This document shows, in pieces, positions 264 to 31,902 of a DNA stretch of 32,000 nucleotides. Positions within the stretch are counted from its first letter, which is position 1; every line of letters begins with the position of its first letter. The translations under genes and the position numbers were made by a program. Below the pieces are notes generated by a model, which was not told where the DNA came from, did no database searches, and saw only the letters and a program-made list of their open reading frames with translations. This DNA is from Verrucomicrobiota bacterium (GTDB lineage: Bacteria; Verrucomicrobiota; Verrucomicrobiia; Chthoniobacterales; UBA6821). Location of the stretch: the NCBI GenBank assembly GCA_008932965.1, contig WBXG01000001.1, positions 25,975 to 57,974 of the forward strand, written 5' to 3'.

Positions 264-332
264 GGGCTCGGATATTTCGTACTGAAGTGTCATGAGGTGC
301 CCTATAGAGCATTCATCTGACTTTTATAGTCC
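264..332 (-). mobile_element. Truncated, degenerate half copy of the MITE-like repeat, directly abutting copy 333-517
   Basis: GCTCGGATATTTCGTACTGAAGTGTCATGAGGTGCC resembles the reverse complement of the right arm of other copies (ACCCGGATATTTCATACTGAATCGTCATGAGGCGCC, from copy 21726-21912). There is no second terminus. Confidence 0.5.
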
Positions 333-517
333 CTAACCCGGATATTTCACACTAATCTACTGCGGAGGCCGGGAAGCAAGGGTGGATGCTGCGTTAGACT
401 CACATTTTGATTTGGACAGCATGTACACATACAGCCCGGCATCAAAATGCTCGTCTGCCTTACCCCATCAGCCTTCGCGACTTCCTCGTCACGATTAGTA
501 TGAAATATCCGGGCTAA
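333..517 (+). mobile_element. MITE-like palindromic repeat, full copy (subfamily 1), flanked by CTAA/CTAA
   Basis: The termini are CTAACCCGGATATTTCACACTAATC and GATTAGTATGAAATATCCGGGCTAA. It is near-identical to 18832-19016, with about 10 differences by manual alignment. The internal palindrome is CATTTTGAT (403-411) / ATCAAAATG (441-449). Confidence 0.85.
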
Positions 518-1968
518 AGGTAATTTCTATGAAGCCTTGCTTTGAATTTTCTCCATACGATTCGTGCAAGTAATAATCCAAGTAGAGCAAGAGCGATTCG
601 AGTCACCTGCGAGTAGGCAGCATGATAAGTAAAGGCGGTGGCTTTGCTCGTCACCGGATCAACAGTTAATTTTGAAATCCAAATTGATAAATAATTTCCA
701 ATAGCTCCGATAAATAGAAAATAAATCGCTACTAAACGGCCTTCACTATCATGTGGGGCAATATCGCCCCAGGAAGCTAACATCACTGGTTCCGTAAAAA
801 GTTCCGCCACTCCCAGCATTACGATGCTGAGGACAGGAAGCAACATACAAATCGGAGTATGTTCACTAGCTAATCCCGAGGCATAGGTCATTGTTCCAAA
901 ACCGAGTACTAGTAATATCAAGGCAATACTTACTTTGGTATCAGTTTGAGGACGGATATGATGGTGACCCATCCAACGCCATAAAAAAGCCATCACCGCT
1001 CCTGCAATTAAAATACTAGCAGCATTCAGTGATTGAAACATTCCAGCAGGTACGGTGCACCCCATGATAGTACGGTTCACATAGCGGGAAATAAAGAGTG
1101 GATAGGAACTGGAAACTTGATTGCTAAAGATCCAAAAAGAGGTCACGAAAAGGGTGAGCACCGCCATCATGATAAGCCCTTTTTGGTGAGCAGGAGTTGT
1201 ATTTTTATAAATCTTTAAAAAGATAGTAAGGGCCATAATAACAACAATCATCAACAAATAGGCTACCCAGTCATGAAGTAGTATTTCGTAAAAGAAGAGA
1301 AAGGAGGTGAGTAGAATGCCACCTGTTAAAAAAGTTTTTTTAGAAAGTGAAAGATGATCCCATGCTTTTGTTTTCTGTGTCTGTTGCTCCCATTGAAAAT
1401 AGCGCTTAGATAGGAGAAAGATGAAAAATCCTAACATCATCCCAAAAGCAGCTACAATGAACCCCATATCCCAACTGATGTTTTCAACTAAATAAGGACA
1501 GATCATTGCAGCGAGCATGGAGCCAATATTGCCAGCGACGTAGTACCATGAAAAAGCTGCGGTAGCACCAACCGGATCATGATAGTAGCAGGTACTAATA
1601 AGACAAACGGCATTGCTTTTAAAAAAGCCAATTCCCATTGTTAAGAGGGATAAGCCAATAAAAACATTTTGTCCAAATACCGTTAGCATAAGGTGCCCTA
1701 AAATGATTAAAACAGAACCTGTAGCAGTGGCATAACGGTACCCGCAATAACGATCCGCTAACCATCCTCCCAGAATAGGAGTAATAAATACGAGTGAGAT
1801 AAAACTTCCAAACAGTTGATAGGCTGCTGAGTCAGAATAATGGAGCTGGCTCGTAAAATAGAGAACCAGAATAGCTTTTAATCCATAAAAGCTAAAAAAC
1901 TCCCACATGATAACAGCAATAATGCACAAGGCTGCTTTTTGTTGTGTCTTTTTTAATGCTGTTACCAT
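514..1968 (-). CDS. Proton-dependent oligopeptide transporter (POT/PTR2 family, DtpT/DtpA-like)
   Basis: 484-aa polytopic membrane ORF with the PTR2 signature region ILGGWLADRYCGYRY near the N-terminus. Its stop codon (rc of 514-516) lies in the CTAA flank of the MITE copy. Confidence 0.85.
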   Translation of the reverse strand: MVTALKKTQQKAALCIIAVIMWEFFSFYGLKAILVLYFTSQLHYSDSAAYQLFGSFISLVFITPILGGWLADRYCGYRYATATGSVLIILGHLMLTVFGQNVFIGLSLLTMGIGFFKSNAVCLISTCYYHDPVGATAAFSWYYVAGNIGSMLAAMICPYLVENISWDMGFIVAAFGMMLGFFIFLLSKRYFQWEQQTQKTKAWDHLSLSKKTFLTGGILLTSFLFFYEILLHDWVAYLLMIVVIMALTIFLKIYKNTTPAHQKGLIMMAVLTLFVTSFWIFSNQVSSSYPLFISRYVNRTIMGCTVPAGMFQSLNAASILIAGAVMAFLWRWMGHHHIRPQTDTKVSIALILLVLGFGTMTYASGLASEHTPICMLLPVLSIVMLGVAELFTEPVMLASWGDIAPHDSEGRLVAIYFLFIGAIGNYLSIWISKLTVDPVTSKATAFTYHAAYSQVTRIALALLGLLLARIVWRKFKARLHRNYL

Positions 1969-2032
1969 TCAGTGAAAATCTTATTTTAGGGCTCTTTAAT
2001 TGTTAAAAATACTTCTTTAATTCAGAATAGGA

Positions 2033-29771: not shown

Positions 29772-30230
29772 GTGGAAATTAAAGAAATACGTGCCCTCAT
29801 TGACCTCATGAAAAAGAATGACCTTGCGGTCTTCAAGATTGAGGAAGGTGATTTTAAAATTACTCTTAAGACTCCCGAGGGAGCAAGTGCTCGAACAGTT
29901 GTCCAAGGGATCTCCTCTGGGGCAATGCCAATCGCTCCTGTTCCTGCAGTGGCCCCTGCAGCACCCTCCCCAGAGTCGAAGCCTGCTGCTACAAATTTTA
30001 AAGAAATTTTATCCCCTATGGTTGGGACATTTTACACGGCAGCTTCTCCTGATTCTCCTGCTTTTGCGGAGGTTGGCCAAAAGATTGATCCAGAATCGGT
30101 CGTCTGTATTATCGAAGCAATGAAAGTGATGAATGAAATCAAAGCTGAAATTGCGGGTACGATTGTTGAAATTGTTGCAGAAAACGGAAAGCCGGTGCAA
30201 TTTGGCGAAGTTCTTTTCCGAGTGAAGTAA
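29772..30230 (+). CDS. accB: Acetyl-CoA carboxylase biotin carboxyl carrier protein
   Basis: It has a biotinyl domain with EAMKVMNEI and a Pro/Ala-rich linker. A GTG start at 29772 gives VEIKEIRALIDLM, matching the usual AccB N-terminus. The ORF track extends to a TTG at 29718. Confidence 0.88.
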   Translation: MEIKEIRALIDLMKKNDLAVFKIEEGDFKITLKTPEGASARTVVQGISSGAMPIAPVPAVAPAAPSPESKPAATNFKEILSPMVGTFYTAASPDSPAFAEVGQKIDPESVVCIIEAMKVMNEIKAEIAGTIVEIVAENGKPVQFGEVLFRVK

Positions 30231-30357
30231 AGGGGTCGGTGTGTCCGTTGAAGCTTCAAGTGAATTTTCATCTTCCCCTTAATAGACTGCCAAATGAATA
30301 GATGGTGATTTCATACACACTCTATTTCTCCAATTTCTAACCTGTCGTCTGCTTATT

Positions 30358-31722
30358 ATGATCAAAAAAATTCTCATTGCCAATCGTGGTGAAATCGCCC
30401 TGCGTATCATTCGTGCCTGTAAGGAACTTGGAATTAGTACAGTAGCGGTATACTCACAGCCCGATGTTGATTCCTTGCATGTTCAACTTGCTGATGAAGC
30501 GGTTTGTATTGGCCCTGCTCCAAGTAGTGGAAGCTATTTAAAAATAGATCGGATCATCAGTGCAGCAGAGGTTTGTGATGTCGATGCCATTCATCCTGGG
30601 TATGGATTTCTTGCAGAAAATGCTCATTTTGCTGAAGTCTGTGCCTCGGCAAATATTAAATTTATTGGGCCCCCTGTATCAGCCATTAAGATGATGGGGG
30701 ATAAAAATAGTGCTCGGGATGCAGCACGTCGTGCTGGTGTTCCGATCTCCCCTGGAAGTGAGGGTATTGTAGAATCCGAATCGGAGGCACTCAAGATCGC
30801 GCGCCACATTGGCTTTCCAGTGATGATTAAGGCTGTTGCTGGGGGTGGAGGTCGTGGCATGCGTATTGCACGTAATGATGGAAGTCTTGTTCAAGGATTT
30901 CATCAAGCACGCATGGAAGCTGAAAAAGCTTTTGGCAATGGGGCCGTTTATATTGAAAAATTCATTGAAAATCCCCGCCATATCGAGTTTCAAATGTTCG
31001 GTGATATGCATGGGCGGGTGGTTCATCTTGGAGAACGAGATTGTTCCATCCAACGTCGTAATCAAAAAATTATTGAAGAGTGCCCATCTCCAATGATGCG
31101 CCCTGAGCTCCGTGCCAAGATGGGGGCTGCTTCAGTCAAACTCTGTGAATCAGTAGGGTATTATAATGCTGGGACGATTGAGTACCTTGTGGATGATGCA
31201 GGAAATTTCTATTTCATGGAAATGAATACTCGTATTCAAGTCGAGCATCCTGTGACTGAGGAGGTTTATGGCTGTGATCTTGTAAAGCAACAAATTCAAG
31301 TCGCTGCAGGAGAGCACCTCTCTGATTATGTTGTGCATGCGAAGCCACGTCTTCATTCTATCGAGTGTCGTGTTAATGCTGAAGATCCAGAAAAAAACTT
31401 TCAACCAAGCCCAGGTCTCATTGAAGCCTATTATGCTCCAGGAGGTCGTGGCATCCGTATTGATTCACATGCTTATGCAGGTTATCCAATTCCCCCTCAT
31501 TATGATTCCATGATTTCAAAAATCATTGCCACTGCCTCTACTCGTGAGGCAGCGATCAATAGAATGAATCGAGCATTGGGAGAATATCTCATCGTTGGGG
31601 TGAAGACGACGATTCCTCTTCAACGCGCTATTATGCGTGATGTTGATTTTCGCCAGGGGCGCTATCACACAGGATTTATGGAGCGCTTTTTAGAACAGGG
31701 TGTTCCAGAATTGAGGGGATAG
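30358..31722 (+). CDS. accC: Acetyl-CoA carboxylase biotin carboxylase subunit
   Basis: 454 aa with the blocks [32 protein letters not shown] and [14 protein letters not shown]. The stop TAG (31720-31722) is the left flank of a MITE copy. Confidence 0.95.
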
Positions 31723-31902
31723 CCTGGATATTTCATACTGATCTACTACGGAAGCCGGGAAGTCAGATGGATGCTGCGTTAGACTTACATTTTGATTTGG
31801 GCAGTATGTACACATACAGCCCTGCATCAAAATGCTCGCCTGCCTTACCCCATCAGCCTTCGCGGCTTCCTCGTCACGATCAGTATGAAACATCCGGGTT
31901 AA
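31720..31902 (+). mobile_element. MITE-like repeat, full copy (subfamily 1, more diverged)
   Basis: The termini are TAGCCTGGATATTTCATACTGATC and GATCAGTATGAAACATCCGGGTTAA. The interior is collinear with 333-517 and 18832-19016. Confidence 0.88.

Follow-up and report, generated by a model that had tools for sequence, protein, structure and literature searches.

The DNA analysed here, 32,000 nucleotides of a Verrucomicrobiota bacterium (contig WBXG01000001.1 of assembly GCA_008932965.1, positions 25,975 to 57,974; hereafter the window), raises the question of what kind of element stands behind the palindromic repeat of ~176 bp that occurs in it as six full copies, two truncated copies and one solo end, i.e. 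at a density of about one copy per 4 kb. Our comparison with related genomes and with complete insertion sequences (ISs) makes it very probable that the repeat is a non-autonomous family of miniature transposable elements with inverted repeats (MITEs), which an IS1380-family DDE transposase moves in trans with duplication of a 4-bp target of the form YTAR.

The terminal 17-mer of the repeat, CCCGSATATTTCAYACT (short form of the family terminus: CCCGGATATTTCA), has 14 matches with up to three mismatches in the window against 0.19 expected, and the maximum in 100 shuffles was one. A repeat search of the window recovers the copies at 334-519, 18833-19018 and 31719-31904 together with right ends shared seven times and a core shared four times. 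Direct reading of each copy showed that a first-pass annotation, made from the sequence alone, was correct in its list of six full copies, two halves and a solo terminus, in their coordinates and in the flanking tetranucleotides. Copies 333 and 18832 (copies are named by their starts), for which about ten differences were counted there, share 95% identity; each of them is matched at 90% by copy 31720, copy 21726 is ~74% identical to these three, and copies 9666 and 3713 reach 57-72% to the rest. The proposed second subfamily is real for copy 21726, but copy 9666, which is inverted, is a chimera of two subfamilies. The truncated copy 264-332 abuts copy 333 and contains ~45 nt of a 21726-type arm after its left terminus, the fragment 19017-19115 represents the right part of a longer subfamily of 227-275 bp, and the match at the solo end 16901-16923 extends over only ~16 nt. 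At the stop of the ORF (open reading frame) 28918-29598, a weak terminus match with three mismatches (29592-29608, minus strand) may represent a solo end in decay or be due to chance.

The repeat is not confined to the window. A scan with the 17-mer over one genome per species (596 Gb) yielded at least 107 stretches, about 90 of them from metagenome-assembled genomes (MAGs) of Verrucomicrobiota and other members of the Planctomycetes-Verrucomicrobia-Chlamydiae (PVC) group. The main sources among the matches listed are Kiruna_bin-02438 “Spartobacteria”, the Chthoniobacterales MAGs Tobar2m-G38 and Deming_bin.170, and the Verrucomicrobiota MAGs OTE_88 and Yes70-15; many contigs carry more than one match, and many matches lie ~100 bp from a contig end. 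The Tobar2m-G38 copies are 92-97% identical to those of the window. The hosts are thus Verrucomicrobiota and for the most part Chthoniobacterales, and paired, bounded copies are also present in MAGs of Phycisphaerales (locus L024; L and P numbers are our handles), Kiritimatiellia (L055) and Omnitrophota (L068). Since ~280 chance matches are expected in 596 Gb for a 17-mer with two twofold-degenerate positions, single matches on contigs of Bacillota, Bacteroidota and Proteobacteria were treated as chance. The window belongs to a freshwater Chthoniobacterales-like lineage, and the closest named homologues are Chthoniobacterales.

The ends of the element are sharply defined. Plus/minus pairs of the 17-mer in the fetched loci and the window peak at 176 bp, the modal element size, with 45 of 90 pairs measuring 175-180 bp, and the termini read 5'-CCCGGATATTTCAYACT...AGTRTGAAATATCCGGG-3'. 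Terminal inverted repeats (TIRs) of ~20 bp, as recognised in the first pass, are invariant or nearly so in 45 aligned copies, and a central core GGGCAGTATGTACACATACAGCCC is more than 90% conserved across the subfamilies. The earlier idea that the whole unit forms one long hairpin is supported by the folding of single copies (-70.8 kcal/mol, z -5.8; -77.6 kcal/mol, z -8.6). RNAalifold on the 45 copies retrieves no more than the terminal helix, given arms that are mosaics of subfamilies, and no family-wide covariation is claimed.

The target duplication is documented by three kinds of evidence. YTAR occupies the four bases outside the terminus at 177 of 234 ends (76%). The 75 bounded elements in the 107 fetched loci and the window have the paired flanks TTAA/TTAA in 22 cases and CTAG/CTAG in 15; the non-palindromic pairs are direct (CTAA/CTAA five times, TTAG/TTAG and GTAA/GTAA once each), and the inverted type CTAA/TTAG was found in none. 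Direct non-palindromic TTAG or CTAA flanks also border five full-length IS copies. The third line is an orthologous empty site in pheT. The filled gene of L086 (a Kiruna MAG) reads ...gggcgggagag TTAA [CCCGCATATTTCATACTG...CAGTATGAAATATGCGGG] TTAA tagaaaaacc and the empty one of L224 ...gggcgggagag CTAA tagaaaaatc; gggagagTTAA[176 bp]TTAAtagaaaaa stands opposite gggagagCTAAtagaaaaa, and the two PheT proteins differ by exactly 60 residues. This clean pair shows a 176-bp element, bounded by CCC and GGG, that duplicates 4 bp. A 4-bp YTAR duplication, argued in the first pass from the direct CTAA...CTAA of copy 333, is thus backed by flank statistics, IS copies and an empty site.

Kinship with IS1380-family elements

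The search for complete relatives with the same TIRs and a DDE transposase was successful. Verrucomicrobiota MAGs as well as unbinned metagenome contigs harbor full-length elements that share the termini CCCGGATATTTCATA... and lie between YTAR tetranucleotides; they measure 1.75-1.8 kb and encode IS1380-family transposases. One example is L025, in which a pair of ends 1801 bp apart (4916-6716; CTAG-CCCGGATATTTCATACT...GGTATGAAATATCCGGG-CTAG) encloses an ORF that matches PF13701 (E 2.7e-97) and the NCBIfam model NF033539 “IS1380 family transposase” (244 bits, cut-off 180). Used as a protein query, it retrieved at least 7990 proteins at E<=1e-30; intact members of the transposase clade comprise 470-490 aa, and most are located on ~2-kb contigs. 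Two further ISs were fetched by protein homology alone and are hence free of any bias from the terminus search. P0226-IS (1754 bp) carries CCCGGATATTTCATAGC at both ends and P0207-IS (1752 bp) the ends CCCGGAAATTTCATAGT and CCTGCATGTTTCATACC; both have YTAR flanks, and PF13701 is recorded on both proteins. A homologous IS1380-type gene lies beside one copy of the 17-mer in L048 and L082, with the second element end not seen in L048, where the locus ends, and not found in L082. A 1706-bp pair of ends in L056 was ruled out as an IS, because it encloses ordinary genes. Between the left end and the transposase gene, L025 (4926-5264) and L048 (7420-7800) contain ~300 bp more than the P0226-type IS; this stretch harbors a conserved ORF of ~90 aa on the opposite strand (MSTIYPLKVQAIR...) without a Pfam match.

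The terminal ~15-17 bp are identical between the MITE and these IS1380-type ISs. In the ISfinder scheme, the ends of IS1380-family elements start with CC and direct repeats of 4-5 bp are typical, whereas IS5-group ends start with GG or GA. Given that the full-length elements found with these ends all encode an IS1380-family transposase, the MITE owes its ends to IS1380 and not, as first annotated, to IS5. The earlier description of the copies as non-autonomous stands: the 176-bp element lacks a transposase gene, its termini are common to L025, P0226-IS and P0207-IS, and tblastn with the IS1380-type transposase gave no match in the window. The MITE is inserted at YTAR tetranucleotides, which it duplicates, very probably by an IS1380-family DDE transposase acting in trans.

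Occupancy among strains and related species

The dynamics of the family can be followed on ~20 contigs from JGI, ENA and NCBI metagenome assemblies that are 97-100% identical to the window. Every insertion covered is common to these close strains, and the differences between them are confined to recombination or deletion between copies; the recent activity deduced in the first pass from the similarity of two copies is not supported in this genome. One example is a 99-bp stretch (placed by alignment at 19013-19111) that is missing from L196 and L197. Its interpretation as an insertion with a TTAA duplication was ruled out, because the apparently empty strains carry a hybrid right arm, which argues for a loss by recombination between two tandem right arms. 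Another example is the site 9666-9825, which in other strains is occupied by a 179-bp copy of the 21726 type in its entirety; the window and L200 have the sequence of another subfamily in place of one half, with a shortening by 25 bp, and ~98% identical strains (L192 13244-13421; L196) have different left halves. These differences indicate ectopic gene conversion between dispersed copies. The 45-copy alignment reveals the same for the family at large, with a conserved core flanked by recombined arms, the left from one subfamily and the right from another. After insertion, the copies evolve by ectopic recombination and gene conversion, which give rise to arms of mosaic structure, to hybrid elements and to losses that leave no more than a solo end. 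In L206 (4230-4300, compared with window 31880-31902), the right end of copy 31720 is truncated and followed by another flank with HPr, HPr kinase, lptB and further genes downstream; the junction is either a rearrangement breakpoint within the element or an assembly chimera at the repeat.

Differences in occupancy appear between related species. The site 3713-3896 is empty in L210 (~85% nucleotide identity), and two copies lie between phoU and an 818-aa gene in L210 (2700-3140), where the window has only 8 nt (12377-12384). This between-species variation shows that transposition happened within the clade. The phoU spacer of the window reads ...TATACCCTGGCTAG..., which may be the terminal remnant of a deleted copy. 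Copy 9666 and L210 were ruled out as a simple filled/empty pair, since L210 has an unrelated 111-nt spacer, and a metagenome scan with the H+-pyrophosphatase added no empty sites, as it found only relatives of at most 73% identity, none with the element. An exact match to this H+-pyrophosphatase is not on record, probably owing to a different call of the gene start.

Several observations weigh against mobilisation by an IS1380-family enzyme. The similarity between MITE and ISs ends after the terminal 15-18 bp, so that simple deletion from one of the ISs seen does not account for the MITE, nor is its conserved palindromic core present in the full-length ISs examined. The flanks of some ISs on short metagenome contigs differ at one position and one pair is of the inverted type; these mismatched flanks may be assembly chimeras. 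Neither the window nor ~150 kb of contigs from close strains yielded an IS1380-family transposase, hence the partner in this genome is inferred, and the lack of insertion polymorphism among contigs 97-100% identical leaves current mobility unproven.

The last two points lead to the variant that the family has the same origin and is now a fossil in this genome, with neither partner transposase nor transposition, a scenario to which we assign somewhat less than an even chance. It would account for the shared insertion sites, for strain differences that amount to no more than the loss of 99 bp by recombination, the exchange of half an element and one truncation with a changed flank, for the mutual identity of the window copies of only 57-95%, and for the absence of a transposase from the window and the strain contigs. 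However, only ~150 kb of the genome was seen, site occupancy differs between related species, and the high identity of the Tobar2m-G38 copies points to a fairly recent spread somewhere in the clade.

Copies on stop codons and in reading frames

Because YTAR contains TAA or TAG, many copies of the IS1380-type MITE sit exactly on the stop codon of a gene. Four genes of the window have their stop in an element flank (Table 1). Copy 9666 fills the entire spacer between two convergent genes, and the 309-aa ORF upstream of copy 18832 ends 20 nt inside the element. In the other loci, the stop lies exactly in the flank at 8 of 25 gene 3' ends that adjoin a canonical copy. Insertions of this kind would be harmless, because the left copy of the duplication would regenerate the stop codon.

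The size of the element opens a second niche. Element and duplication add up to 180 bp (176 + 4), exactly 60 codons, and copies hence also survive in frame inside genes. One of them is copy 3713, for which the first-pass annotation overlooked that it is not intergenic; it lies in frame within the ORF of an APC amino-acid permease (3447-5066, minus strand). The ~61 aa encoded by the element (LDRIFHAD...HYEISGLT) lie in a loop near the C-terminus. The Pfam match stops at residue 377 of 539, and the conserved C-terminal helices resume after the element (FRSPLYPLPQLFF...). Orthologues of 76-83% identity comprise 441-448 aa and lack the whole extension. P0002, encoded on a contig that is syntenic and belongs to a related species (~85% nucleotide identity), has the extended loop and lacks the 61 element-encoded residues; its empty site reads ...GGAAGTAGCTC... 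at the DNA level. Modelling of the insert-bearing permease by AlphaFold reached a mean pLDDT of 44 with a shallow alignment of 13 sequences, and the model was therefore not used.

Examination of all bounded copies revealed that many are spanned by long ORFs (Table 1), with empty orthologues shown for two host genes. The element is entered in the frame YTA-RCC-CGG-ATA-TTT-CAY-ACT, encoding L(A/T)RIFHT, and left in the frame CAG-TAT-GAA-ATA-TSC-GGG-YTA, encoding QYEI(S/C)GL. Whichever way the element is oriented, all intragenic copies are read in this one frame. Their lengths are 176, 209, 257 or 275 bp, and the length plus four is always divisible by three; the copies of 177-180 bp are all intergenic. 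An insertion at a leucine codon (YTA) that precedes a purine thus adds exactly 60 codons in the frame YTA-RCC-CGG-ATA-TTT-CAY..., in which stops are usually lacking on either strand, and part of such insertions persist inside intact genes. In 23 distinct 176-bp copies, the frame is open 19 times in sense, 18 times in antisense and 15 times in both directions, compared with 0.19, 0.20 and 0.04 in interior shuffles, and the other frames are almost never open. For the interior alone the contrast is weaker, with 0.2-0.4 stops in the insertion frame vs 0.6-2.7 in the others, and the 176-bp copies fall into only ~4-6 lineages; for these reasons, selection for translatability is suggested and not more. 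That the family has been shaped to colonise coding sequence, as a 60-codon unit with a leucine-target frame that is stop-free on both strands and with insertions that are tolerated and translated, is a tentative proposal that we regard as rather doubtful.

Table 1. Copies of the repeat in the window, genes whose stop codon lies in an element flank, and in-frame copies at loci of other Verrucomicrobiota MAGs; core lengths are counted from CCC to GGG.
Feature	Position	Strand	Details
Truncated copy	264-332	+	Left terminus degenerate (267-283, CTCGGATATTTCGTACT; differs from the 17-mer by 2 mismatches)
Full copy 333	333-517	+	177-bp core 337-513; direct flanks CTAA/CTAA
Full copy 3713, old, diverged	3713-3896	-	176-bp core 3717-3892; flanks TTAG/CTAG
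Chimeric, internally shortened copy 9666	9666-9825	-	152-bp core 9670-9821; flanks CTAA/TTAA
Solo right terminus TGAAATATCCGGGTTAA	16901-16923	+	Between pstS and glycosyltransferase family 2 (GT2) gene; common to all strains
Full copy 18832	18832-19016	+	177-bp core 18836-19012; flanks TTAA/TTAA
Right-hand fragment of longer subfamily	19017-19115	+	95 bp + TTAA; in tandem with copy 18832
Full copy 21726, second subfamily	21726-21912	+	179-bp core 21730-21908; flanks TTAA/TTAA
Full copy 31720	31719-31902	+	176-bp core 31723-31898; flanks ATAG/TTAA
POT/PTR2 transporter gene	514-1968	-	Stop (reverse complement of TAG) 514-516 in right flank of copy 333
folE2	stop TAA 9666-9668		Left flank of copy 9666
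841-aa ORF	stop (reverse complement of TAA) 9822-9824		Right flank of copy 9666
accC	stop TAG 31720-31722		Left flank of copy 31720
In-frame copy, pheT	L086 3796-3971		tRNA_bind before insert; B3_4, B5, core domain and FDX-ACB after
In-frame copy, glnD	L074 3871-4046		UTase and HD domains before insert; ACT after
In-frame copy, transglycosylase-domain gene (PBP-type)	L054 292-548		Domain match only upstream of insert
In-frame copy, low-molecular-weight phosphatase gene	L067 5006-5181		Domain split by insert
In-frame copy, PMT/TMEM260-type glycosyltransferase	L100 276-451		Insert downstream of domain
In-frame copies, PMT/TMEM260-type glycosyltransferases	L020 2454-2629, L045 747-922		Insert upstream of sole domain match; may precede true gene start
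In-frame copy, malQ			Insert only upstream of domain match
In-frame copy, 866-aa ORF			Unannotated ORF spans copy
In-frame copy	L007 2312-2487		Verrucomicrobiota MAG

The insertions in genes could also be taken for a mobile coding module, i.e. a 60-aa peptide with a function of its own in host proteins, for which the same frame open in most copies on both strands and the presence of intragenic copies in intact genes, including the normally essential pheT, could be adduced. This is very unlikely, since the only conserved parts of the peptide are its TIR-encoded ends, with a middle that varies with subfamily and orientation; moreover, the majority of copies lie between genes, the host proteins show no relationship to each other and no Pfam domain covers the inserted segment in those scanned.

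Equally improbable is that the repeats are immobile structural or regulatory palindromes, such as elements like REP (repetitive extragenic palindromes) or BIME (bacterial interspersed mosaic elements), terminators or small-RNA genes, which spread without transposition. Strong hairpins, copies directly after stop codons, the replacement of a whole convergent-gene spacer and the core conserved across subfamilies would suit such a role. An origin of this kind is largely refuted by precise ends, a 4-bp duplication and a clean empty site, by termini identical to those of transposase-encoding ISs, and by copies within coding sequences. Known structured RNA families are likewise not involved: the whole window lacks any Rfam 15 match at gathering score, the stretch 18780-19180 lacks one even at E<=1, and a search of the window for tRNA genes returned none. 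Neither terminator-like sites with a T-run nor promoter-like sites were found inside the copies scanned in 18500-22300, and the orientation relative to the upstream gene shows no bias (12 sense, 13 antisense), which together argue against a strand-specific RNA role.

Surroundings in the window and known systems

Some features of the window concern its genes and not the transposition of the MITE. A heptamer array (GGGTAAT/GGGTAAA)n at 5085-5165 occupies the divergent spacer from the permease start (5066) to an OmpA-family gene (5258). Close strains differ in the length of this array (L192, +49 nt; L198, +14 nt), which resembles a variable-number tandem repeat at a contingency locus, and the gene caller read it as an N-terminal extension in one relative (P0002). 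The region 24803-27556 and 27573-27732 harbors a CesT-family chaperone gene and an IpgD-like gene, whose affiliation to type III secretion chaperone/effector families suggests a host-interaction lifestyle. Most related strains have an extra segment of ~4 kb between sequences repeated at 27573-27732, with a second CesT gene, a 911-920-aa ORF and a short element fragment, and a 72-nt in-frame indel distinguishes strains at 27051. Directly downstream of copy 21726, the stretch 21930-22496 contains an antitoxin-like ORF (59-63 aa in strain annotations) and a PIN-domain gene.

The derivation from an IS5-group element proposed in the first pass can be dismissed as scarcely credible: the 4-bp YTAR duplication, which is typical of the IS5 subgroup, is real, but all full-length elements found with these termini encode PF13701/NF033539 and not IS5-type transposases, no IS5-type gene is associated with these ends among them, and CCC opens the termini. 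The duplication is hence what IS5-subgroup ISs and MITEs derived from them have in common with the present family, from which they differ in termini and transposase family. The IS1380 ISs share both the terminal ~15-17 bp and the YTAR duplication, whereas the MITE measures 176 bp, is devoid of a transposase and has an unrelated interior with a central palindrome of its own.

A dense repeat of this type has practical consequences. It breaks MAG assemblies, as seen from the many matches ~100 bp from contig ends, gives rise to chimeric repeats and provides points of rearrangement. Gene calls can be inflated or distorted by 60-aa inserts, by ORFs running into elements and by spurious small ORFs.

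MITEs are a known class, and neither the parent family nor the phylum of the present one was found in a recent review or in full-text searches. The latter retrieved no description of MITEs tied to IS1380 or to Verrucomicrobia and nothing specific on IS1380 with TTAA, and both IS1380 and Verrucomicrobia are absent from a review of prokaryotic MITEs published in 2024 (PMC10969869). ERIC, QMITE1 of Coxiella and the Anabaena MITEs are small hairpin repeats with TIRs at their ends, and in-frame fusions with host ORFs occur in some cases (PMC10969869). They belong to other parent IS families and hosts, and in the family described here length plus duplication is an exact multiple of three.

A more distant parallel leads to eukaryotes. 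The target of piggyBac and that of the MITE are 4 bp long with a central TA, both have CCC...GGG ends, and TTAA is the commonest target in our family. IS1380 transposases are bacterial relatives of piggyBac. They have been placed as its prokaryotic outgroup (PMC10813416). The TTAA/YTAR target together with CCC...GGG ends thus represents a concrete trait shared by IS1380-type elements and piggyBac. The latter is eukaryotic and strictly specific for TTAA, and the likeness may serve as a lead, not as a claim of membership; by analogy, a piggyBac-like precise excision at TTAA, which would make insertions reversible, is a possibility.

The closest functional counterpart is found in the Rickettsia palindromic elements (RPEs), palindromic repeats that occur between genes and in frame inside unrelated, even essential genes (Ogata et al. 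2000, summarised in PMC10969869). Both repeats are ~150-180 bp long, and the inserted peptides of both are read in one conserved frame. In contrast to the RPEs, the MITE has clear TIRs, its 4-bp target duplication is defined and its transposase family can be identified; moreover, it resides in Verrucomicrobiota whereas RPEs belong to Alphaproteobacteria. The likeness is meant as a functional analogy, and sequence homology is not expected. In-frame copies with clean empty orthologues make the family a tractable counterpart of the RPEs, which have long been puzzling, and with target, duplication and likely enzyme family known, the entry of a selfish repeat into essential genes and its persistence there become testable. 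If the colonisation of coding sequence holds true, the MITE would represent a second, independent RPE-like system, with an IS1380 transposase family and a defined target and frame logic, that could recurrently supply new protein loops in Chthoniobacterales.

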